The notes: generated by a model from the sequence alone, not told the origin. A DNA stretch of 64,000 nt from Candidatus Zambryskibacteria bacterium CG10_big_fil_rev_8_21_14_0_10_42_12 (GCA_002787695.1 PCXL01000011.1:61155-125154), one strand, 5' to 3'. Positions 1-63,315 are shown, numbered from the stretch's first letter. Made by a program: numbers and translations.

Positions 1-1082
1 GATCCTGCTTCCGCTACTTTTTCTGCAAGCTTTTCTCGAAGATACTTGCTTGCCATAACACCTCCACCAAATGCACATGATTGTGCACCAGATTCGACCA
101 AAGCCTTGAAGAGCTTTGTGGTGAGCACATCGGCGACAGCTTCTTCAAATTCTCTCGCAAGACCCGCCTGCCATTCGGCTTGAGCCGTCAGGCGATTGGC
201 GGGCAGGCCCGCTTTTTCATCCTCACTAAATTCATTATCTCTCACTGCATAGAGCACTGCTGTCTTGAGTCCAGAAAAAGAAAAGTCTAGATCAGGTGTA
301 CCAATCATAGGTCGAGGAAGTTCTACGGGTGAAGGAATCTGTTCTACCCGTGCTCGTTCGGCGAGGCGTCCGATTTCCGGACCGCCGGGATATGAAAGAC
401 CCAAGAGGCGCGCAGTCTTGTCATAGGCTTCACCGACCGCATCGTCGCGTGTTTTGCCGACTATAGTATATGAACCCCAAGAATCCATGTGAATAATCTC
501 TGTGTGTCCACCAGAGACGAGGAGAGTTGTCATGGGGAAGTTTGGTGTCTTGATGACATTATTTTCAAACAGGGCAGAGACGAGGTGTCCCTCCATGTGA
601 TTCACCGGAATAACTTCGACATGAGGCCAGAGCACTTTGAGTGCATGGGCAAAATTGATACCGACCCAAAGCGCCGGTTCGAGCCCTGGGCCTTGCGTGA
701 TGGCAATCACATCAATTCCCTCACCACTTACCCCGAGTAAGTGTTGCACAATATGTTCATAGAGATCAGGTTCACGTTCGAGCACTTTCTGAATTTTTTC
801 TTTTGTCTCGATGCTTGCTTCGATCTGTGTTTTAAAGAGTTCATTTTCTTTTTCTTTACTCTCCGCAATCACTTTCAGCATTACTGGAACCAGGTTCAAT
901 CCATGCTCGCGTTTTGCAAGTGCTGGAAATACTCCCCCGAATTCGGCGTGTAGATTTGCTTGTGAATGCACGATATGTGCCAAAACATCGACAGATATGC
1001 CCGTATCTGTTTTGTGCGTTCGTATGAGTGCAATCGAAGTTTCGTCACAGCTTGTCTCTATAGATAGAATAGTTTTTTGCAT
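1..1082 (-). CDS. tsaD: tRNA N6-adenosine threonylcarbamoyltransferase TsaD (Kae1/Gcp family); C-terminus runs off the window edge
   Basis: Minus-strand translation from ATG at 1082: MQKTILSIETSCDETSIAL...HMEGH...LLVSGGHTEII...VGKTRDDAVGEAYDKTARLLGL...GGGVMASKY. These are canonical TsaD motifs. It has no stop within the window, so it is absent from the ORF track. Confidence 0.9.
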   Translation of the reverse strand, partial: MQKTILSIETSCDETSIALIRTHKTDTGISVDVLAHIVHSQANLHAEFGGVFPALAKREHGLNLVPVMLKVIAESKEKENELFKTQIEASIETKEKIQKVLEREPDLYEHIVQHLLGVSGEGIDVIAITQGPGLEPALWVGINFAHALKVLWPHVEVIPVNHMEGHLVSALFENNVIKTPNFPMTTLLVSGGHTEIIHMDSWGSYTIVGKTRDDAVGEAYDKTARLLGLSYPGGPEIGRLAERARVEQIPSPVELPRPMIGTPDLDFSFSGLKTAVLYAVRDNEFSEDEKAGLPANRLTAQAEWQAGLAREFEEAVADVLTTKLFKALVESGAQSCAFGGGVMASKYLREKLAEKVAEAG

Positions 1083-1127
1083 ACTTTTTGTGCGCGGTGA
1101 GGGACTCCCCGCCTGCCAACGCCTGAA

Positions 1128-1195
1128 GTCGTAGACAATAGCGGGCAGGGAACCCCCGGCATCAACAACGTCAATGTTGCGCTCTACCAACTGAC
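1128..1195 (-). pseudogene. Degenerate tRNA-Val(GAC)-like copy (D-arm and anticodon arm recognisable; acceptor and T arms do not fold canonically)
   Basis: The minus strand reads GGGTCAGTTGGTAGAGCGCAACATTGACGTTGTTG. It has a D-loop like AGTTGGTAGAGC and an anticodon stem CAACA/TGTTG with loop TTGACGT (anticodon GAC), but no acceptable T-arm. It lies directly 3' of the intact tRNA-Val and is bounded by 17-bp direct repeats CCGCCTGCCAACGCCTG at 1109-1125 and 1196-1212. Confidence 0.35.
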
Positions 1196-1210
1196 CCGCC
1201 TGCCAACGCC

Positions 1211-1285
1211 TGGTGATCCTTGGTGGGATCGAACCACCGACCTTTTCGATGTCAACGAAACGCTCTACCACTGAGCTAAAGGATC
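1211..1285 (-). tRNA. tRNA-Val (anticodon GAC)
   Basis: Minus strand: GATCCTTTAGCTCAGTGGTAGAGCGTTTCGTTGACATCGAAAAGGTCGGTGGTTCGATCCCACCAAGGATCACCA. It forms a cloverleaf with anticodon loop TTGACAT and an encoded CCA. Confidence 0.85.
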
Positions 1286-1358
1286 GTATGCATGGCGGGC
1301 AGCTAACCGCGCAGAACGGGGCTATAGTATCGTTTCTGGCTGTATATTTCAAATGGTA

Positions 1359-3142: not shown

Positions 3143-3200
3143 CATGAAAAATGAAGAGGCTCCCGCAAGGGAGCTTTTTCATGTGACCCTACGGGCAGAA
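3143..3200. terminator. Compound hairpin terminator after tRNA-Glu; its outer stem is an inverted copy of the tRNA 3' end
   Basis: GGGTCACATGAAAAA-TGAAGAG-GCTCCC-GCAA-GGGAGC-TTTTTCATGTGACCC. The inner 6-bp stem plus T-run is flanked by a 15-bp outer inverted repeat. Confidence 0.6.
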
Positions 3201-3330
3201 AGGGGTCGGGGAAACTGGGTGTTTCCCCGTGGAGGAAGGCAGTGAGTCCTCGAACGTTGGAAAACCGTGGGTTTCCAAGGTCTCGTAAGGGTCAATGAAA
3301 AATTATCTGTGACCGAAAGTGTATTCACGT

Positions 3331-3348
3331 TTCCCCGTAGGGTCACAT
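3331..3348 (+). repeat. 18-nt perfect direct repeat of the tRNA-Glu 3' end (TTCCCCGTAGGGTCACAT)
   Basis: Identical to 3128-3145. The two copies bracket a 185-bp hairpin-rich segment at 3146-3330. Confidence 0.8.
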
Positions 3349-3391
3349 CAGGACTGATATTCTCGATAGATAATTATGATATATTTTCTTC

Positions 3392-4222
3392 ATGAAAATA
3401 TATCGCTATGTTATAGATGGGCTTGTGATACTCCTGGCACTCTTTGTTTTTGGTCCACATTTGTATTATCTCTTGCCGTATGACTACGTAGACACAACTC
3501 TTCCGGACGATGTTGCCGATTATAATATTGCGATGTATACGTACCTGGAAAGTTTACCTCAAGATTTCCAGACATTACTCGCAGAGCCAACTGGTCTCAC
3601 TGGTACGCAGCGCTTTCGCACACAGGAAAATCGAAGCTTATTATCGGCAGAAGAAGTGTATGAACAGAGCAAGGACAGTGTGGTGATTATCGAGACGATG
3701 GATATGTATGGAGACCCATATAGTGGCGGCGGTGTTGTGCTGTCATCTGATGGGCTGATTGTCACGAGTTATCATCAATTGCAGGATGCAGAAAAAGTTG
3801 CAGTTTCACTTTATGATGGCAGCATTGTCAAAGTCACCGATGTGGTTGCATACGACGAAGCGCTCGATATTGCATTTATAAAGATCGATAGTGTCGATCT
3901 GCAGCCGATGCCGATAGGAGACAGTGCGCTACTTTCGATCGGTGAGCGAGTCTACTCCATCGGGCATCCTGAAGGATTTCATCACTCGTTTGCAGAGGGT
4001 GTGGTCAGTGGTATCCGTGACTATTCGTCTAGAGGTGAAGGGATACAGATCCAGATGACGAATCCGATTTCAGCAGGGAATAGTGGTGGCGCGTTGCTCA
4101 ATACCTATGGCGAGCTTGTGGGTATTCCATCGTGGTCTCTTGAATACGAAGACAATATCGTCTCTATCCAAAACCTCAATTTCTCCATCCCGATCAGGGA
4201 GGCGCTCGGAATTTTAGAATAA
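3392..4222 (+). CDS. Trypsin-like serine protease (S1C/HtrA-like protease domain, no PDZ), N-terminal membrane anchor
   Basis: Catalytic triad context: TSYHQL (His), DIAFIKI (Asp), GNSGGAL (Ser). 276 aa. Confidence 0.85.
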   Translation: MKIYRYVIDGLVILLALFVFGPHLYYLLPYDYVDTTLPDDVADYNIAMYTYLESLPQDFQTLLAEPTGLTGTQRFRTQENRSLLSAEEVYEQSKDSVVIIETMDMYGDPYSGGGVVLSSDGLIVTSYHQLQDAEKVAVSLYDGSIVKVTDVVAYDEALDIAFIKIDSVDLQPMPIGDSALLSIGERVYSIGHPEGFHHSFAEGVVSGIRDYSSRGEGIQIQMTNPISAGNSGGALLNTYGELVGIPSWSLEYEDNIVSIQNLNFSIPIREALGILE

Positions 4223-4348
4223 GTCCAAACCTTGAAAATACGGCTTTATAAAAGAAAATTTTGTTTTTATATATTATAAAGAGCTTAAATCAGGAGTCGT
4301 CTTTTTTATTGATAAAGTTTATTTTTTGGACTAATATCCATAATACAG

Positions 4349-5671
4349 ATGAATACCAATCAACATCAAAAAAATTATGAGGTGAAACTACCCAGAATAA
4401 TGACGATCGTTTTAAGCATTGCTTCTTATTATAGAAAAACATATTTTAATACTAATGACTTAGCTATATTAGGAAACAAATATAAGCAGGATATAATACG
4501 CACCAGGAAAGATAAGGAGCACTATGCTTTTGCGAATGACACGAATTTCGGCGGAATTAGAGGTAATCTCGCTACTTTGTTGACTTGGAAGGGGGTTATT
4601 AAAAAAGATAATAGATTAGTTAATGCGTATTCTGTTGGCAGAAATGAACAAATAGTTAATGCTGTTGCTAGTGGAAAAATTATGCTTGATCTGACAAACG
4701 ACAAAGCTCATACACAGAATGAGAATCTTTTAAAATTATTGAAGGCTGAGATTTACTTAAGGTCAGTCAGGGAAGGTCAGGCACATATAAAAACATTTAT
4801 AAAGAACAATAACCATATTGGTTTTGGGAGAGATCTTGAGTTTCCAAAAACTTCTGTAGTAAAGACCAGTAAAGGTGTATGTTTTTTGAGGGCAATTGTT
4901 AATAATTTTGTAGATAGTAAAAATGAAGTTCTTAGTTATAGAATAGTCGATTTATGGTCTTCTAAAAAAATTTTAAAAGCTAATATTCATGTCTTATTTG
5001 TTGTTCCTAGAGGTAGTGACTATTGGTGTTCTATCTATGCTTTGTCTTTGGAGGAACTGTGGATCAATAAACCTGCAATTATAAATATAAACTTACTAAA
5101 CAAAAAATGTTTTGATGACATTGGAAAAGAGTATGAATTAAGAAAATTAGATTATGCGATAAATAATTTTACGAAAAGAGATGCAAATATAAATTTGCGT
5201 ATAGGGTATGATCCAAGAGAATTTTTAATTAGATATGTTATTGATGAAACAAAAAATAAGAGAATAAGGGAAAGTGAATTTAGTTTGTTTACCAAGAATT
5301 TCTTGAATTGGAATCCGAGAATAAAAATTAATAATGTGGAGGTGTGTAACATTATTGAATCAAGTTCTGGTGGTGTTGATCTGACACTCCAGTTTGTTAA
5401 TGGATCTGAGGCAAAGGTTGAGCTTGAGCATAATTGGAAAAATTATATTGATCATGGTCATCATACTAGTAACGCATGGTCAAAATGTTGGTTGTATGCT
5501 GATGAGCAGTGGGATTTCGATAATATAAAAAATATTTTTCAAACACATTTTAAAAAGCACGGAGACCGTGTTCCAACAACATTTCTAACTAAAATAGATG
5601 GTAAACAAAAGATATTTAGAGTTGATTGGCATACTCTTGATGTTTCGGAAATCGATATTACAAATTATTGA
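4349..5671 (+). CDS. Putative restriction endonuclease of the adjacent R-M system (no recognisable family; C-terminal D...EAK PD-(D/E)XK-like motif)
   Basis: A 440-aa ORF in a strongly AT-rich block of roughly 30% GC. It is convergent with, and ends 6 bp inside, a two-methyltransferase operon. The C-terminal GGVDLTLQFVNGSEAKVELEH resembles a PD-(D/E)XK core. The call is by genomic context. Confidence 0.4.
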   Translation: MNTNQHQKNYEVKLPRIMTIVLSIASYYRKTYFNTNDLAILGNKYKQDIIRTRKDKEHYAFANDTNFGGIRGNLATLLTWKGVIKKDNRLVNAYSVGRNEQIVNAVASGKIMLDLTNDKAHTQNENLLKLLKAEIYLRSVREGQAHIKTFIKNNNHIGFGRDLEFPKTSVVKTSKGVCFLRAIVNNFVDSKNEVLSYRIVDLWSSKKILKANIHVLFVVPRGSDYWCSIYALSLEELWINKPAIININLLNKKCFDDIGKEYELRKLDYAINNFTKRDANINLRIGYDPREFLIRYVIDETKNKRIRESEFSLFTKNFLNWNPRIKINNVEVCNIIESSSGGVDLTLQFVNGSEAKVELEHNWKNYIDHGHHTSNAWSKCWLYADEQWDFDNIKNIFQTHFKKHGDRVPTTFLTKIDGKQKIFRVDWHTLDVSEIDITNY

Positions 5672-6414
5672 TTTGTGATTTTCTTTATGTTTTTCAATTC
5701 TTTTAGTCTATTGATCATAATTGCGTAGTATTCACTATCTTTTTCTATACTTATACTATTTCTCTCTAGGTCATTTGCAACTTTTGTTATTGTTCCACTA
5801 CCAGCAAAACAGTCTAAAATCAGATCGTTTTTATTGGTGAAAATTTTAATTAGAAATTCAATAACTTTCTCAGGTTTTTGTGTAGGGTGTTTTGTTCTTT
5901 CTTTTCCCATACATATCGGTGTTTCTATAAAATTATGCATCTCTCTTTGGTTGCTAAAGTTGAAAGTGTAGCTGATTTTTTTATTATCGAAACCGTTCGT
6001 TGCCCATACAATTGCCTCATTGGAAGACAAAAAACCATTTTTTCTAATTTGTGGTGCCGGATTTGTTTTATGCCAAATTATTGTTGCATGATGTGAAAAA
6101 CCTAACGATTCGTAGATCCGCTTAATATCACTTATATATTCTAACTTACAGAATAAAACTAAATTACCATTTTCCTTTAAAACTTTTTTAATCTCACTTA
6201 CCCACTTTCTGGTAAAAACCAAGAATTCATCATCTTTAAAATAGTCCCATTCTCCAAAATCAGAAGAAAGAGCTTTTCTACCTTTCAATAATTTCGTATT
6301 TTTATTGGCAGTATTGTAGGGAGGATCCACAATAACGGCATCAACTTTTCTTTTGATTTTACCTAGGGAGTTAAAAACATCTCCAAGGATTAGTGTGTGT
6401 TTGTTCTTTTTCAT
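5665..6414 (-). CDS. Site-specific DNA methyltransferase (beta-class N6A/N4C, DPPY motif before FxGxG)
   Basis: VIVDPPYN (motif IV), HPTQKP, DCFAGSGTT (motif I) at the C-terminus. Its start codon overlaps the stop of the upstream methyltransferase (TAATG), indicating translational coupling. Confidence 0.85.
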   Translation of the reverse strand: MKKNKHTLILGDVFNSLGKIKRKVDAVIVDPPYNTANKNTKLLKGRKALSSDFGEWDYFKDDEFLVFTRKWVSEIKKVLKENGNLVLFCKLEYISDIKRIYESLGFSHHATIIWHKTNPAPQIRKNGFLSSNEAIVWATNGFDNKKISYTFNFSNQREMHNFIETPICMGKERTKHPTQKPEKVIEFLIKIFTNKNDLILDCFAGSGTITKVANDLERNSISIEKDSEYYAIMINRLKELKNIKKITNQ

Positions 6415-7343
6415 TAGGTTTTATTTTTTATTCTATCAATCGACATCTTGTAGAACGCGTTGTCTATTTCGCATCCAGAGTAAAACCTGTTCATTCTTTT
6501 GGCTACCACAGCAGTGGTACCAGATCCGAGAAAAGGGTCGAAAACAATGTCACCGCTGTTTGTTGTTGATTTAATAATTCTTTCTAGTAACCACTCAGGT
6601 TTCTGTGTTGGGTGTATCTTCTTTCCTCCAAAAGTTTTACCTTTTGGCCAAATAGATCTCATTTGCTTGCCATCATTGTCTTTTTTCATTAAATCATAAT
6701 TGAAAATATTCCCCTTTCCTTTTCTGGCCCAAATAAAATTTTCGTGATCTGCTACGAATCTAGTACAAGACAAATTGGGTGTCGCATCTGTTTTATGCCA
6801 CAAGATTTCATTTAATAATTCAAAGCCAGTTTTTTCTAATAAATAACCGGTCGTATAAATACTGTGATAAGTTCCTGCCACCCATATTGCTCCATTTTTT
6901 TTCAAAATACGGAATGCCTCGTCTATCCATTTTTTCGTAAATAGTTCATAATTATCGATTATGTCCCAAAGACCTTTATTAGTATATAGGTCTTTGCCAC
7001 CTGATTTTGTAAATTTAATTTTAAAATTGCTTTTACTGAGATTATAAGGGGGGTCTGCAAAAATGAGGTCTATAGACTCGTCTTCTATTGAGCTCATTAT
7101 CTTTATGCAGTCATCGTTAAAAATCTTATTCTTGAGCCCGTCTTTTGTTATTTTATCTCTCGCCTCTTTTTTAGGTTTTTTAGAGAGGGTAAGTAGATAT
7201 GCTAATGAATCTTTTTCAATTCTTCTGGCACCTCCAATTTTAATAGAAGGAATTATATTTTTAGATATGTATCTTTTTATAGTTATTTCAGACACATTTA
7301 AAAAATCAGAAGCTTCTTTTATTGTGTAAAAATTTGGCTGCAT
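6414..7343 (-). CDS. Site-specific DNA methyltransferase (beta-class) with N-terminal HTH domain
   Basis: N-terminal MQPNFYTIKEASDFLNVSEITIKRYI (HTH). IFADPPYN, HPTQKP, DPFLGSGTT. Confidence 0.85.
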   Translation of the reverse strand: MQPNFYTIKEASDFLNVSEITIKRYISKNIIPSIKIGGARRIEKDSLAYLLTLSKKPKKEARDKITKDGLKNKIFNDDCIKIMSSIEDESIDLIFADPPYNLSKSNFKIKFTKSGGKDLYTNKGLWDIIDNYELFTKKWIDEAFRILKKNGAIWVAGTYHSIYTTGYLLEKTGFELLNEILWHKTDATPNLSCTRFVADHENFIWARKGKGNIFNYDLMKKDNDGKQMRSIWPKGKTFGGKKIHPTQKPEWLLERIIKSTTNSGDIVFDPFLGSGTTAVVAKRMNRFYSGCEIDNAFYKMSIDRIKNKT

Positions 7344-7581
7344 TGTTTTTATCTAAGCTCGTAAAAGTATCAATTGGTATCAATTTTAGCAGTAATGGGT
7401 ATTTTGGTATGGGGATAACGTTTGTAGGTTAAAACCAAGTATAAATTTAGGGGAGGTTTTAGCAGTGGTGTAAAAATATTGGTGGTACATATCTTTGGCA
7501 TGAACAAATTCGCGATAGGAGGTCTTTATATTGTGATCCTACGAAGCATTTAACGGAGAATTGTGATATAACGCTTATATT

Positions 7582-8523
7582 ATGCCAGCAAATAATCTTG
7601 GGAAAATTTCAAAAGTGGAGTTTAGGAAAGCGTGGAATCATGAGGCTTCTGATTTTACAAATTGGCTCGCGGAGGAAGAAAACCTACGCCTCTTGAGTGA
7701 TGAAATCGGTATTGATATTAAACTTATTCAAACAGAAGCAAGTGTGGGGAAATTTAATGTTGATATTCTGGCAGAAGAGGAAAACACAGGAAAGAAGATT
7801 GTCATTGAAAATCAACTCGAAGCGACAAACCATGACCATCTTGGGAAAATTATTACCTATGCGTCTGGCTACGAGGCAAATATTGTCATTTGGGTTGTGA
7901 AGGAAGCGAGAGAGGAACATCGACAAGCGGTCGACTGGCTCAATGAGCATACTGATGAGGATCTTGCATTCTTTTTGATACAAATAGAATTGTGGCAGAT
8001 CGGGATGTCTCCGTTTGCACCTAAGTTTGAAATGATTTCTAAGCCAAATGATTGGGCTAAAACAATAAAGCAATCAGTCGGAAGTAATAAAGTAACCGAA
8101 ACAAAGGCGCAGCAATTGCAATTTTGGGAACAGTTTAAGAATTATGCAAAGGACCATAATACAAATTTGAGATTGCAGAAAGCTTATCCACATCACTGGA
8201 TGAACGTCAGTATTGGGAGTAGCCATGCACATATGGCACTTTCTATGAGTTCATTTGATGAGGTGATGCGAACAGAGCTGTATATACCAGATAATAAAGA
8301 AATATATAATTTTTTGTATAAGCAAAGAGATAAGATTGAAAAAGAATTTGGCATGAAGCTCGAGTGGATGGAATTACCAGAAAGAAAAGCGAGTCGTATA
8401 AAAGTAGAAACTTCAGGCCTTATAGATAATACGGACGAATGGGAAACATATTTTGCATGGCTTCAAAAAACCGCCGAAGATTTTCAACGAGTTTTTTCAA
8501 AAATTTTAAAAAAGTATAAATAA
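7582..8523 (+). CDS. PD-(D/E)XK nuclease-fold protein (DUF4268-like)
   Basis: N-terminal FNVDILAEEEN...KKIVIENQLEATNHDHLGKIITYA is typical of NucS/RecB-like nuclease cores. 313 aa, adjacent to the R-M operon. Confidence 0.5.
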   Translation: MPANNLGKISKVEFRKAWNHEASDFTNWLAEEENLRLLSDEIGIDIKLIQTEASVGKFNVDILAEEENTGKKIVIENQLEATNHDHLGKIITYASGYEANIVIWVVKEAREEHRQAVDWLNEHTDEDLAFFLIQIELWQIGMSPFAPKFEMISKPNDWAKTIKQSVGSNKVTETKAQQLQFWEQFKNYAKDHNTNLRLQKAYPHHWMNVSIGSSHAHMALSMSSFDEVMRTELYIPDNKEIYNFLYKQRDKIEKEFGMKLEWMELPERKASRIKVETSGLIDNTDEWETYFAWLQKTAEDFQRVFSKILKKYK

Positions 8524-37421: not shown

Positions 37422-37610
37422 CAAGAATAAAAGAACTGGGCACGAATGTGTCTCGTGATTTTTATTCTCGCCTCGGGCGGGAATCGAAAGCCGGAGCGCG
37501 CGAAGCCGACCGTAGGTCGTGTGCGAGGCGGGGTCGCGACCTCCGTCGTGAAGATTTACCCAGCACTTATAACATAAGTGCTGGGTTTATCGAAACAGGA
37601 GAGTTGTGAC

Positions 37611-37628
37611 CGATTCCCGCCCCGGGCA
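37611..37628 (+). repeat. 18-nt direct repeat of the tRNA-Leu(TAA) 3' end (CGATTCCCGCCCCGGGCA)
   Basis: Identical to 37404-37421. The 190-bp segment between them contains hairpins and a partial inverted copy of the T-arm (GCGGGAATCGAA). Confidence 0.8.
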
Positions 37629-37677
37629 TCATATAAAAAGGAAATGCCCTCGCGGATGCGAGGGGCTTTATGGGGGA

Positions 37678-38076: not shown

Positions 38077-38784
38077 GTGCTAATGTTTTTTATATTAATA
38101 TATGGTATACGCTATATGCCTTACAATATTAAATACTACAAAACATATCAGTGGAGTAAAAAGTTGGCATATATAATTGGACTTATTGCAACAGATGGAA
38201 GTCTGTCTGTTGACGAGCGTCATATTGATTTTACATCTAAAGATTTAGAGCTTATCAAAATTTTTAAAGATTGTCTGAAACTTTCAAATAAAATAGGTAT
38301 TAAGAAGAGCGGCACAAACAGAGTTTGTTTTTGTATACAATTTGGTAACAAGAATTTTTACAACTTTCTAAATTCTATAGGGATTTATAAGGCTAAATCC
38401 AAAACTATAAAAAGGATTGATATACCTAATAAATATTTTCCACATTTTTTACGTGGCTGTTTGGATGGCGATGGTAATATTGATTTATACAAACATGCAC
38501 AAAGTCAATATATGCAAATTAGATTTAGATTTGCATCTGCGAGTAAACCATTTCTAGAATGGATATTACAGGTATTAAAAATAAAATATAGTATTGAAGG
38601 AGGTTGGATTTATAGTCAAAAAAATAAATCAACCCATGTTTTAGTCTTTGGTAAGACAGACACTTTGAAAATTGGAAAAATCATGTATCATGACCATGCG
38701 AACTTATGCTTACAAAGGAAGTTTGCAAAATATAAACAATGGGCAAGTGGCGGAATTGGTATACGCGCTAGTCTTAGGAACTAG
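38077..38784 (+). CDS. LAGLIDADG homing endonuclease (double-motif), AT-rich; 3' end overlaps tRNA-Leu(TAG) by about 44 nt
   Basis: Two LAGLIDADG motifs, LAYIIGLIATDGSLS and FLRGCLDGDGNID. About 28% GC. It lies between tRNA-Lys and tRNA-Leu(TAG). Confidence 0.8.
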   Translation: MLMFFILIYGIRYMPYNIKYYKTYQWSKKLAYIIGLIATDGSLSVDERHIDFTSKDLELIKIFKDCLKLSNKIGIKKSGTNRVCFCIQFGNKNFYNFLNSIGIYKAKSKTIKRIDIPNKYFPHFLRGCLDGDGNIDLYKHAQSQYMQIRFRFASASKPFLEWILQVLKIKYSIEGGWIYSQKNKSTHVLVFGKTDTLKIGKIMYHDHANLCLQRKFAKYKQWASGGIGIRASLRN

Positions 38785-38822: not shown

Positions 38823-38950
38823 CAGTGAGTTTTCGAACGAGGACAAGGACTAGCTTGTGATAACAAGCGTTAGTCTGACTCGAAGCCTGTTTGAGATATT
38901 TTGTGAGCTGGCGAAACAAAATATCCAAACACGGGTACTGAACCTGTAAG

Positions 38951-38974
38951 GTTCGAGTCTCCCCTTGCCCACAG
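38951..38974 (+). repeat. 24-nt direct repeat of the tRNA-Leu(TAG) 3' end (GTTCGAGTCTCCCCTTGCCCACAG)
   Basis: Identical to 38802-38825. The intervening 125 bp contains the hairpin GATATTTTGT...ACAAAATATC and a partial anticodon/T-arm-like stretch. Confidence 0.8.
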
Positions 38975-46624: not shown

Positions 46625-47431
46625 ATGGCTAGACGCTGGACAAAAGAAGAAGAGAAGTATTATCGAGATGAATTAGTAAATTTATATTACTCCAAAAACT
46701 TGAGCATGCATGAGGTAGCAAAGGTTTTGAATATAAAATCAGCTACGGTTTTTGATAGATTGCGCCGGTTACGTATTAACACGGTGCCTCATCTTAAGAA
46801 GGGTTATCGAAACGTTCGCAAAGATATTCGTATCCCAGATTGTCATGATGCAAATTTGGCAGAATTTTTTGGCATCATGTTGGGCGACGGCCACCTTTCT
46901 CATTTTCAAGTAACCGTAACATTGGGAACAAAAGAATATGTGTATGTGCAATATGTAAAAAAGTTAATGGAAAAAATTTTTAAAGTGCCAGTTAAAATCT
47001 CAGAAAGGAAGTTTAAGCGAACGGATAATAAGCATTATACTGTTTATTTTGGTTCAACCGTAACGAGTCAGTGGTTAAAAACTGAGGGTTTAGTAGAAAA
47101 TAAAGTGAAAAATCAAGTCGATGTTCCAAAGTGGATATTTGAAAATAATATATTCATGGAAAGATTTTTAAGAGGGTTTTTTGATACTGATGGATCGGTT
47201 TATAAATTGAGGCACGGCATACAAATTGGACTAACAAACCGTTCACTACCGATGCTGAAATCTTTACAATTGATGCTAAAAACACTAGAATACAGGACGT
47301 CTGAAATCAGTGGTTTTCGCTTGTATATAACAAAGAAGCAGGATCTAAAAAGGTTTTTTAAAGAGATTAAACCGAAAAATCCAAAACATACTGCCAGATT
47401 TCAGGAATATCTCAATGCGTCAGTCGCATAG
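46625..47431 (+). CDS. LAGLIDADG homing endonuclease (double-motif) with N-terminal HTH; 3' end overlaps tRNA-Tyr by 15 nt
   Basis: Two LAGLIDADG motifs, LAEFFGIMLGDGHLS and FLRGFFDTDGSVY. N-terminal LSMHEVAKVLNIKSATVFDRLRRL is HTH-like. AT-rich. The stop codon TAG lies inside the tRNA-Tyr acceptor/D region. Confidence 0.8.
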   Translation: MARRWTKEEEKYYRDELVNLYYSKNLSMHEVAKVLNIKSATVFDRLRRLRINTVPHLKKGYRNVRKDIRIPDCHDANLAEFFGIMLGDGHLSHFQVTVTLGTKEYVYVQYVKKLMEKIFKVPVKISERKFKRTDNKHYTVYFGSTVTSQWLKTEGLVENKVKNQVDVPKWIFENNIFMERFLRGFFDTDGSVYKLRHGIQIGLTNRSLPMLKSLQLMLKTLEYRTSEISGFRLYITKKQDLKRFFKEIKPKNPKHTARFQEYLNASVA

Positions 47432-62175: not shown

Positions 62176-63315
62176 TTGTTATCCATGTCTTACTATATGG
62201 GATTTTGGGAAAAACTGAAAAAACCGATTTATGCATTGGCGCCGATGGCGGATGTTACTGATGCAGCTTTCAGGCAACTCATCGCACGAAAAAGTAAATT
62301 TGATAAAAAAGGCGGTAATACAGGTGCGGAGTATGTCTCATGGACAGAATTTGTTTCAGCAGACGGTCTTGCACTTGCTCCCGAAGAAGGGAGACAGAAA
62401 CTGATGAAAGCGTTACTGTATTCCGAGATTGAACGGCCCATTGTCGCACAATTTTTTGGAAGCAATCCGGATCATATGGAAGCAGCGGCACGCCTTGCGT
62501 TAGAGCTCGGTTTTGATGGAGTAGATATCAATATGGGTTGCCCAGATCGCTCTATTGAGAAACAAGGTGCAGGTGCTGCGATGATAAAAACTCCTGAGGT
62601 GGCACGTGAGATTATTCGTGCTGTAAAACGAGGTGCCCGCCTGCCATCGTCTACGACTTCAGTCAATGGCGGGCAGGCTACACAGGGAGACAAACAAATC
62701 CCTGTTTCTGTAAAAACGCGTCTTGGGTACAACAAAGATGAACTCGATACATGGCTTCTTGTACTTCTGGAAGAAAAGCCGGCAGCTGTAACAATTCATG
62801 CGAGAACAAGAAAGGAGATGTCTAAAGTTCCTGCACACTGGAACAGGATTAAAGATGCGGTAGATATCAGAAACGAGATGGGAAGTAAAACTTTGATTAT
62901 TGGTAATGGAGATTTGGGGACACTTAGTGATGGGGATCAGAAAATACAAGAGACTGGTGCAGATGGGGTCATGTTTGGTCGTGGAGTTTTTGGTAATCCA
63001 TGGTTTTTTAATAAAGAATTAGTTTCAGATGATGAAGTTGCTTTACCAGTTCGTGGTCAGACAGAAGGAGATAAGGTGCGATACAGTAATACTAAAATTT
63101 CCCAGGAAGACAGATTGAAAACTTTGTTAGAACATGCAGAATTGTTTGATGAATTTTTGGGAGACACTAAAAGTTTTGCTGTCATGAAAAAACATGTGAA
63201 GGCATATATCTCCGGTTTCCTCGGCGCAAAGGAAATCCGTGATCAACTTATGCAGACAAAAGATCTTCAAGAATTTCGCAACTCTCTTAAAATTTATAAA
63301 CTTGCTACCGACTGA
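62176..63315 (+). CDS. dus: tRNA-dihydrouridine synthase with an in-frame insert of about 20 aa encoded by a GC-rich hairpin repeat element
   Basis: ALAPMADVTDAAFR, GVDINMGCP, IPVSVKTRLGY. The insert RGARLPSSTTSVNGGQATQGDKQ corresponds to the 42-bp element at 62636-62677. Confidence 0.85.
   Translation: MLSMSYYMGFWEKLKKPIYALAPMADVTDAAFRQLIARKSKFDKKGGNTGAEYVSWTEFVSADGLALAPEEGRQKLMKALLYSEIERPIVAQFFGSNPDHMEAAARLALELGFDGVDINMGCPDRSIEKQGAGAAMIKTPEVAREIIRAVKRGARLPSSTTSVNGGQATQGDKQIPVSVKTRLGYNKDELDTWLLVLLEEKPAAVTIHARTRKEMSKVPAHWNRIKDAVDIRNEMGSKTLIIGNGDLGTLSDGDQKIQETGADGVMFGRGVFGNPWFFNKELVSDDEVALPVRGQTEGDKVRYSNTKISQEDRLKTLLEHAELFDEFLGDTKSFAVMKKHVKAYISGFLGAKEIRDQLMQTKDLQEFRNSLKIYKLATD
62636..62677. 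repeat. 42-bp GC-rich hairpin element (arms CCCGCCTGCCA ... GCGGGCAGG), copy B, in-frame within dus; copy A at 1108-1149
   Basis: Copies A and B have identical length and identical arms in the same orientation. The central 14-bp core (CTGAAGTCGTAGAC against GTCTACGACTTCAG) is inverted between them. Confidence 0.6.

Follow-up and report, generated by a model that had tools for sequence, protein, structure and literature searches.

How does an intact tRNA gene come to lie inside another gene for the same tRNA? The question is raised by a locus upstream of tsaD in Candidatus Zambryskibacteria bacterium CG10_big_fil_rev_8_21_14_0_10_42_12, which we analysed within a stretch of 64,000 nt (GCA_002787695.1 PCXL01000011.1:61155-125154; hereafter the window). 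The window looks like part of a Patescibacteria genome of the Parcubacteria/Paceibacteria type, with ~43% G+C and ten tRNA genes, and the nearest named homologues of its Dus protein come from Kaiserbacteria and Paceibacterota, at ~60% identity. We propose, with a probability of roughly 65%, that a resident tRNA-Val(GAC) gene upstream of tsaD was invaded twice by non-autonomous mobile hairpins, and that a tRNA carried as cargo by one of them replaced the gene that was destroyed.

The locus (1088-1316, minus strand) holds an intact tRNA-Val(GAC) at 1211-1285, within a 109-bp unit and flanked by arms at 1195-1205 and 1293-1303. The latter is the right-arm-like stretch that had been noticed just 5' of the tRNA when the DNA was first read without database searches (the sequence-only reading). 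That reading took 1150-1194 for a degenerate tRNA-Val copy; the stretch shares 70% identity with the real tRNA across 40 nt, yet it forms the middle of a second, otherwise perfect tRNA-Val(GAC) gene, here called Val*, which spans 1312-1091 on the minus strand in pieces of 11+45+17 nt. Removal of both inserts in silico led ARAGORN to call tRNA-Val(gac) for 435 boundary combinations, and the exact join 1312-1302 + 1194-1150 + 1107-1091 (73 nt) gives a perfect cloverleaf. What looked like a degenerate copy is therefore the middle piece of a gene interrupted twice. The outer inverted repeat 1088-1101/1303-1316, reported by a repeat finder, is the acceptor stem of Val*. Insert 1, in the D-arm (1303-1195), runs arm-leader-intact tRNA-Val(GAC)-trailer-arm in the orientation of Val*, and insert 2, in the T-loop (1149-1108), is an empty 42-nt hairpin. 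On the minus strand the locus starts with GCGCGGT TA GC, passes into insert 1 as (C)TGCCCGCCA-TGCATAC-tRNA-Val(GAC)-CCA-GGCGT-TGGCAGGCGGG, goes on as TCAGTTGGTAGAGC G CAACATTGACGTTGTTG ATGCC GGGGG TTC to insert 2, which reads CCTGCCCGCTA-20 nt-TGGCAGGCGGG, and ends with GAGT CCCTC ACCGCGC A. The sequence-only reading saw correctly that arms flank the intact tRNA, and missed that they do so within one twice-interrupted gene, the tRNA being nested in the D-arm of a gene with its own anticodon; its span took in the arms and the tRNA, and left the 5' piece (1312-1302) and 3' piece (1107-1091) of Val* outside or at the edge. The features of the locus, together with the two further copies of the hairpin, are as follows.

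163..207, plus strand: E1, 45-bp hairpin element in frame in tsaD, adding GLPANRLTAQAEWQA (15 residues)
1091..1107, minus strand: Val* piece 3, GAGT CCCTC ACCGCGC A, comprising the T-loop remainder, T-stem 3' strand, acceptor 3' strand and discriminator
1108..1149, minus strand: E2, empty 42-nt hairpin that separates TTC from GAGT in the Val* T-loop (folding energy of the minus strand -20.6 kcal/mol)
1150..1194, minus strand: Val* piece 2, comprising the D-arm remainder, anticodon arm (GAC), variable loop, T-stem 5' strand and T-loop TTC
1195..1205, minus strand: cassette 3' arm TGGCAGGCGGG
1206..1210, minus strand: trailer GGCGT (the AGGCGT/GGCGA trailer type occurs in at least 113 cassettes)
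1211..1285, minus strand: nested intact tRNA-Val(GAC) with encoded CCA, the cargo (ARAGORN; Rfam tRNA 71.9 bits)
1286..1292, minus strand: leader TGCATAC, between the 5' arm and the nested tRNA
1293..1301, minus strand: cassette 5' arm TGCCCGCCA (family consensus CCTGCCCGCCA, its first 2 nt missing or merged with the exon)
1302..1312, minus strand: Val* piece 1, GCGCGGTTAGC, comprising the acceptor 5' strand, U8 A9 and the start of the D-stem
1324..1352, minus strand: promoter-like TTGAAA-N17-TACTAT upstream of Val* piece 1 (consensus match only)
62636..62677, plus strand: E4, 42-bp hairpin element in frame in dus, adding ARLPSSTTSVNGGQ (14 residues)

RNAfold predicts the 109-nt unit to form a stalk topped by a cloverleaf. 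Judged by consensus match only, the site at 1324..1352 is the sole promoter-like site able to drive the nested tRNA, and this upstream flank is partly conserved in the relative L259. Piece 3 of Val* ends 8 nt from the tsaD ATG. The public TsaD call (P0121, locus L262) is 445 aa long because its start falls among the tRNA fragments and the frame continues across Val* piece 2 and the empty hairpin (window 1083-1196); the true start is the ATG at 1082. Searches against Rfam at gathering and permissive thresholds found only tRNA, and a sub-threshold tRNA match (21.8 bits) at 1138-1205 was set aside, as it merely takes both arms for an acceptor stem.

The arms of the two inserts belong to a small family. 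Arm L, the 11-mer CCCGCCTGCCA, occurs four times in the window (at 163, 1108, 1195 and 62636) and so does arm R, TGGCGGGCAGG, with at most one mismatch (at 197, 1139, 1293 and 62667), all on the plus strand. Each L is followed by an R, which makes four co-oriented units of 45, 42, 109 and 42 bp; four matches were reached in 0 of 100 dinucleotide shuffles, for L as for R. The 42-bp element with arms that the sequence-only reading placed at 1108-1149 is thus real, the repeat of its left arm is an exact 18-nt match between 1108-1125 and 1195-1212, and the copy said to lie in frame in dus is there; the fourth copy, in frame in tsaD (163-207), had escaped notice. Pairing between L and R is imperfect, with one T.G and one C.A position that are the same in all window copies. 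Read on the reverse strand, the element is an equivalent hairpin, CCTGCCCGCCA...TGGCAGGCGGG (L'...R'), with an inner stem of ~5 bp inside these arms. Between the dus copy (core 62647-62666) and the T-loop copy (core 1119-1138) the arms agree in orientation and the cores are reverse complements of each other; it appears that the core of one has been inverted between its arms relative to the other.

The window hairpins are insertions into DNA, as empty orthologous sites reveal. The 14-residue insert in Dus is missing from 14 of 14 aligned homologues, some of them 83% identical, and the empty site is visible in the DNA of L257. Likewise, the 15-residue insert in TsaD is missing from homologues 82% identical, with empty DNA sites in L259 and L263. 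Both copies are absent from the closest homologues and are therefore DNA insertions. At the tRNA locus itself, the relatives L259 and L260 (TsaD 78% identical) have an uninterrupted tRNA-Val(gac) at the syntenic site between OmdA and tsaD. The L259 gene is identical to the rejoined Val* over the first 28 nt and 77% identical overall, with a similar upstream flank, and its homologous 3' end lies immediately before tsaD. The same filled alleles are found in the independent JGI (Joint Genome Institute) contigs L258 and L262, from one sample, and the tRNA locus of L262 is identical to that of the window, which excludes assembly error.

The loaded form of the hairpin is widespread. We scanned metagenomes with the pattern L'-N50-80-GTTCRA-N10-40-R' and obtained at least 120 matches, with a chance expectation, by our own rough estimate, of about one; all cassette counts given here are among the matches listed. 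In 113 of 120, ARAGORN found an intact tRNA between the arms (102 distinct sequences). The cargo covers at least 22 anticodons, led by Thr(CGU) with 20, Arg(CCU) with 16, Thr(UGU) with 10 and Pro(CGG) with 8. Leader and trailer (e.g. TCGCCTAA...AGGCGT) pair with each other, lengthen the stalk and resemble the inner stem of the empty hairpin, so that the empty element is the same stalk with a 6-nt loop replacing the tRNA. The idea of the sequence-only reading that the element is the empty version of the tRNA flanks is borne out, because the same arms enclose a tRNA at the hairpin-tip position in at least 113 other loci. Its question whether further tRNAs are flanked by these arms has a qualified answer: they are, only as cassettes nested in cognate genes and not as free-standing tRNAs.

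The relation between the nested tRNA and the gene around it (the outer gene) follows a rule. In 58 loci, an outer tRNA spanning the junction is restored once CCTGCCCGCCA...GGCAGGCGGG is cut out exactly, and in 51 of these the outer anticodon is that of the nested tRNA; the remaining seven look like miscalls of outer genes with further inserts. Outer and inner tRNA are co-oriented in all 56 outers scored for strand, and the flanks of 100 of the 113 cassettes match best tRNAs of the same amino acid from other loci. Insertion points cluster in the D-loop and 3' D-stem (20-25), the anticodon loop (31-37, often within the anticodon) and the T-loop (54-56). The same nesting, with a decayed outer gene and Russian-doll arrangements, is seen for tRNA-Thr(CGU) in the Saccharibacteria locus L018 and in locus L008, where one cassette has different arms. 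Around 167 ordinary tRNAs, a search for nested tRNAs with other flanks gave only neighbours from tRNA arrays and no second arm family. In 2.9 million viral contigs the loaded-cassette pattern had no match, the arms gave only chance-like matches, and neither loaded cassettes nor the nested tRNA-Val were found, hence no sign of phage carriage.

Empty hairpins are distributed differently from loaded ones. A scan of species-representative genomes with the pattern L-N15-45-R, whose counts are likewise among the matches listed, yielded a coherent family below ~56% G+C with the consensus CCCGCCTGCCA-ACGCCTGAAGCCGCAGGCAA-TGGCGGGCAGG; matches of high G+C look like chance and were set aside. Hosts include Saccharibacteria, Doudna-, Magasanik-, Nomura-, Jackson- and Falkowbacteria and SR1, as well as genomes labelled Desulfobacteria (including a closed chromosome), Dehalococcoidales, Chloroflexia, Ignavibacteria and others. 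Beyond the window, the search for further copies thus produced at least 85 empty and at least 113 loaded ones. Among the empty copies in low-GC loci (n=112), 64 are clearly intergenic and 15 lie in long open reading frames (ORFs). The length is a multiple of 3 in 13 of the 15 ORF-borne copies versus 58% of the intergenic ones, and the ORF-borne copies occur in both orientations relative to the gene (8:7). Being in frame and in both orientations, they are therefore translated and not removed from RNA. The hairpins are enriched near tRNA genes. We found no orientation bias with GC skew (36:34), which we used as a test of replication-linked single-strand insertion, no preference of empty hairpins for the loops of local hairpins (30% vs 25% of control positions, p = 0.36), and no tRNA rebuilt by excision of a single hairpin in 230 candidates from the genome loci. 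In genomes outside the candidate phyla radiation (CPR), a 40-41-nt hairpin made of the arms and the core CGCCTGAAGC is present in L061 (CP070673.1), L009, L010, L057, L114, L075 and L022; these carriers include a closed 5.1-Mb Deltaproteobacteria chromosome, and tandem extra R arms occur at times.

What becomes of an outer gene once it is filled varies from locus to locus. Some outers carry mutations at conserved positions (T54C, loss of a D-loop G, and a mismatched acceptor in L156 and L181). Others have lost internal segments (L195, L137) or are truncated (L018), and in still others the loops are riddled with additional small GC-rich hairpins. For quality, inner and outer genes were compared by loop signatures only; the bracket output of ARAGORN omits stem mismatches. 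Dead outers such as L139, L160, L191 and L215 have CCGCC-N3-4-GGCGG mini-hairpins in the D, anticodon and T loops, and several Thr outers share TTCCGCCAAAGGCGGATAAACTCC where the anticodon loop should be; these mini-hairpins are possibly further element families.

The nested tRNAs resemble their own outer gene at 0.76 on average and same-anticodon outers elsewhere at 0.72, that is, they are on average no closer to their own outer, which marks most of them as foreign to the gene that hosts them. In a minority, identity to the own outer is 85-99%. In L150, L144 and L161 the nesting is up to three deep, the outer itself then being followed by trailer and arm, so these read as a cassette invaded by a like cassette; gene conversion may explain other pairs of high identity. 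Cassettes whose inner tRNAs are 89-93% identical sit in outers that are only 67-77% identical, related cassettes occupy different positions (anticodon loop versus D-stem, 21 versus 23, 37 versus 35), and a single backbone is found both as Pro(UGG) and as Pro(CGG), in either case within the cognate gene. Related cassettes in differing outers and at differing positions argue for repeated independent insertion and against a single inherited allele or site-specific allelic homing.

The sequences show the insertions, an outer gene in three pieces with an intact cargo, the rule of matching anticodons, the co-orientation, the decay of outers and the related cassettes across hosts and positions. We suggest that a mobile non-coding hairpin occurs either empty or loaded with a tRNA at the tip of its stalk. 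A loaded copy landing in a tRNA gene would destroy that gene; the cargo, probably transcribed from the promoter of the host gene and freed by ordinary tRNA end-processing, would take over its function. For such an insertion to survive, the cargo would have to be transcribed and to read the same codons as the lost tRNA, which would account for the match in anticodon and orientation. In small genomes with single-copy tRNA genes, only insertions that bring their own replacement would therefore be viable. The host would come to depend on the cargo, the old gene would decay, and the new tRNA would be open to further invasion. Applied to the window, this would make Val* the ancestor, preserved intact in L259, and today's working copy the nested tRNA-Val, as far as can be judged from the DNA. 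The insertion machinery presumably prefers the loops of tRNA genes and would be mobilised in trans by an enzyme. It is tempting to speculate that the cargo tRNA itself, as RNA or as folded single-stranded DNA, guides insertion to the loops of the same-anticodon gene, a homing without fixed sequence sites. This would explain why loaded copies lie only in cognate tRNA genes while empty hairpins are scattered, and we regard it as a tentative and rather doubtful extension.

Several observations weigh against this proposal of invasion and replacement. Complementation selection explains why the target is cognate and does not explain why loaded cassettes are absent from neutral non-tRNA DNA: 0 of the 113 lie outside tRNA genes. 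With neutral intergenic sites far outnumbering tRNA genes and most empty copies located there, a very strong targeting of tRNA genes, possibly dependent on the cargo, must be assumed. The outer gene is perfect after in-silico excision in the window and in ~45% of loci, with T-loop and D-loop signatures as good as those of ordinary tRNAs, so loss of function of the outer genes is something we infer. We found neither a target duplication nor a common target motif at the cassette insertion points, and no target-site duplication at the empty dus and tsaD sites, apart from a possible GCGGG microhomology at tsaD. When the ORFs near the elements in ~200 loci were clustered all against all, no transposase, recombinase or other such recurrent neighbour emerged; only housekeeping genes and LAGLIDADG-like and GIY-YIG ORFs recur. 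Finally, conservation of the arms in the collections is in part imposed by the exact-match search patterns.

The main alternative is splicing of the outer gene at the RNA level. The stalk would align the exon ends, the insert would be cut from the pre-tRNA and the exons ligated, so that one transcript gives both the nested tRNA and a functional outer tRNA, in a bacterial analogue of the non-canonical and multiple tRNA introns and the split tRNAs of Archaea. The perfect exons of the window and of ~45% of loci would then be expected, as would the co-orientation in 56 of 56 outers and the placing of inserts in or beside the D, anticodon and T loops. Many outers hold several small GC-rich loop hairpins, as do multi-intron archaeal tRNAs, and the GC-rich complementary arms recall the split tRNAs of Nanoarchaeum, in which leader and trailer pair. 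A functional outer gene, however, leaves the constant match of anticodons between cargo and outer unexplained, and outers with deletions, truncations, T54C or G18/19 defects are common. There is neither a bulge-helix-bulge, the junctions lying at the blunt base of a helix made of intron sequence only, nor a group I intron signal, and the hairpins borne by ORFs keep the frame in both orientations and so are not removed from mRNA. A hairpin as the sole interruption of an intact tRNA was seen in 0 of the 230 candidates, a weak argument given a random expectation below 1. We consider splicing unlikely.

Intronless homing by endonucleases is a slightly less probable explanation still. Free-standing LAGLIDADG or GIY-YIG enzymes would cut uninterrupted alleles, and repair would copy the cassette allele. 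Two LAGLIDADG-like ORFs do adjoin tRNA genes in the window, one between tRNA-Lys and tRNA-Leu (38077-38781) and one directly upstream of tRNA-Tyr (46625-47428), with matches to Pfam LAGLIDADG_3 at E = 1.8e-13 and 6.2e-17, and the tRNA-Lys/endonuclease/tRNA-Leu layout is repeated in a Saccharibacteria genome (L073 6720-7380). Among the matches listed, LAGLIDADG-like ORFs occur at 6 cassette loci and small GIY-YIG ORFs at 8, several at most ~150 nt from the cassette. The cassettes themselves contain no endonuclease gene, however, and most of the cassette loci listed have none nearby. The same arms serve at least 22 anticodons, and related cassettes lie at different positions of the target tRNA across hosts where allelic homing would fix the position; these variable positions argue against homing as the main route.

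The hairpins could also be host-functional motifs (a terminator, a processing or protein-binding site, or an uptake-type signal), with the tRNA locus as a by-product of recombination. Their mostly intergenic setting when empty (64 versus 15), their enrichment near tRNA genes and the recurrence of the same 41-nt hairpin in several phyla, including on the closed Deltaproteobacteria chromosome, would suit such a role. Presence and absence at three orthologous sites, in-frame copies within conserved enzymes and hairpins with no T-tract following them do not, four copies in 64 kb are too sparse for an uptake signal, and the nested same-anticodon cassettes are left unexplained; we therefore hold this to be very improbable. 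As for the local duplication artefact that the sequence-only reading had allowed for should no further copies exist, or an error of assembly, misassembly can come from short repeats and palindromes, but the probability is negligible here, as copies are abundant elsewhere, more than 100 analogous loci come from many samples, independent contig L262 shows an identical locus, and the three pieces rejoin to a perfect tRNA orthologous to that of a relative.

Other tRNA genes of the window carry marks of their own. After tRNA-Leu(UAA), a second family of small inserts is represented by ~190 nt (37423-37629) ending in a duplicate of the tRNA 3' end, CGATTCCCGCCCCGGGCA; its core, GCCGGAGCGCGCGAAGCCGACCGTAGGTCGTGTGCGAGGCGGGGTCGCGACC, recurs in a T-loop insertion of the L259 tRNA-Val(GAC) (L259 3825-4000). 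Duplication of a 3' segment, a feature of integrative elements, is found at both of these inserts, unlike the cassette. At 38824-38973, tRNA-Leu(UAG) is followed ~125 nt later by a second copy of its own 3' end, GGTTCGAGTCTCCCCTTGCCCACA, which looks like another integration scar. Direct and inverted partial 3' ends of tRNA-Ser(CGA) and tRNA-Glu(UUC) surround the intact genes at 2729-2760, 2846-2868, 3175-3195 and 3328-3357. In this genome, tRNA genes in general seem to attract small insertions. Elsewhere, a low-GC block at 4000-8000 (32-34% vs ~43%) includes an unannotated ORF of 440 aa and, side by side, two genes for N6/N4 DNA methyltransferases (5668-6414, 6417-7343); it was probably acquired as a restriction-modification island. 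Between DUF417/DoxX-like and OmdA-like genes, 1851-1898 forms a perfect 48-bp palindrome of 24+24 with no spacer.

If the proposal of invasion by loaded hairpins is right, the tRNA genes of small-genome bacteria (Patescibacteria/CPR) would owe their turnover to a parasite, which eliminates the resident gene and leaves a copy of its own behind, a route for the horizontal replacement of core translation components and an addiction-like strategy that works without a toxin. It would provide a testable case of tRNA genes becoming interrupted, nested and split, hitherto debated mainly for Archaea. Annotation would be affected as well: tRNA debris is read as protein (the 445-aa TsaD), and isoacceptor counts and the pseudo-tRNAs of metagenome-assembled genomes would be misjudged. 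That essential enzymes tolerate a 42-bp element in frame, and that different phyla have it in common, would point to a widely available insertion activity.

How does the family compare with known systems? The searchable literature yielded no account of a tRNA lying inside its cognate gene, nor of nested, mobile or disrupted bacterial tRNA genes of this kind, and a literal search of the literature for the arm sequences returned only unrelated primers and oligonucleotides; we rate the nested cassette as new in kind. A number of candidate classes match poorly. Repetitive extragenic palindromic (REP) elements with their REP-associated tyrosine transposases (RAYT), including REPINs, do not fit, as there is no conserved flanking tetranucleotide, copies lie inside ORFs and tRNA genes, and no RAYT-like neighbour is found among the element loci. 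Palindrome-associated transposable elements (PATE) derived from IS200/IS605 differ in that the ends here pair together and show neither a fixed target nor an orientation bias with GC skew. For integron attC sites, the arms are without GTTRRRY, and there is no array and no integrase nearby. Group I introns do not fit, as the window and 12 loci give no Intron_gpI match and the inserts measure 42-125 nt; nor do the junctions suit archaeal bulge-helix-bulge introns, since by inspection they lie at the end of a continuous 10-11-bp helix of intron sequence only. An element of the kind that targets tRNAs through a tyrosine integrase does not match a cassette with a full tRNA, no junction repeat and no integrase ORF. 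Islands and miniature elements of this integrase type do resemble the cassettes in targeting tRNA genes, carrying replacement sequence and leaving the old fragment as a pseudo-copy; here, in contrast, a whole nested tRNA stands in place of a fused 3' segment, attL/attR direct repeats and an integrase are lacking, and several insertion positions (D-arm, anticodon loop, T-loop) are used.

Archaeal disrupted tRNA genes (bulge-helix-bulge introns, the intron transposition of Thermoproteales and split tRNAs) likewise contain several small inserts per gene, placed in the loops of the D, anticodon and T arms; related inserts turn up at varying positions from one tRNA to another, and GC-rich complementary sequences join halves. 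The present case is bacterial and without a bulge-helix-bulge, its cargo is a complete tRNA of the same anticodon, its outer genes decay and its ORF-borne copies are translated. Free-standing homing endonucleases of the SegB type from phage T4 share selfish spread tied to tRNA genes and endonuclease ORFs placed between them, whereas the cassettes described here have no endonuclease and no fixed insertion position.

Miniature inverted-repeat transposable elements (MITEs) and mobile insertion cassettes are similar in having terminal inverted repeats and no transposase of their own, and in being multi-copy, empty or loaded, and polymorphic for presence and absence; the 11-nt arms on a short element that is non-coding or carries only a passenger, present in several copies, correspond to such repeats. 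They differ in that arm-to-arm excision here restores canonical tRNAs with no duplicated bases, i.e., there is no target-site duplication. In ~200 element loci, neither a parent insertion sequence with the same ends nor a recurrent transposase-like ORF was found. Moreover, pairing of the ends yields a stalk in which two fixed positions are non-Watson-Crick, and every cargo is a tRNA, with its cognate gene as target. The Rickettsia palindromic elements (RPE) and the organellar GC-cluster and double-hairpin elements are likewise tiny non-coding palindromes found between genes and translated in frame, and E1 and E4 show this feature, adding 15 and 14 residues to conserved proteins as in-frame palindromes. 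With ~100-150 bp in RPE versus 42 bp here, the likeness is one of behaviour, and the two are not known to be related in sequence. The present family is distinguished from RPE and GC clusters by its tRNA-loaded form, its residence in tRNA genes and its spread over several phyla.

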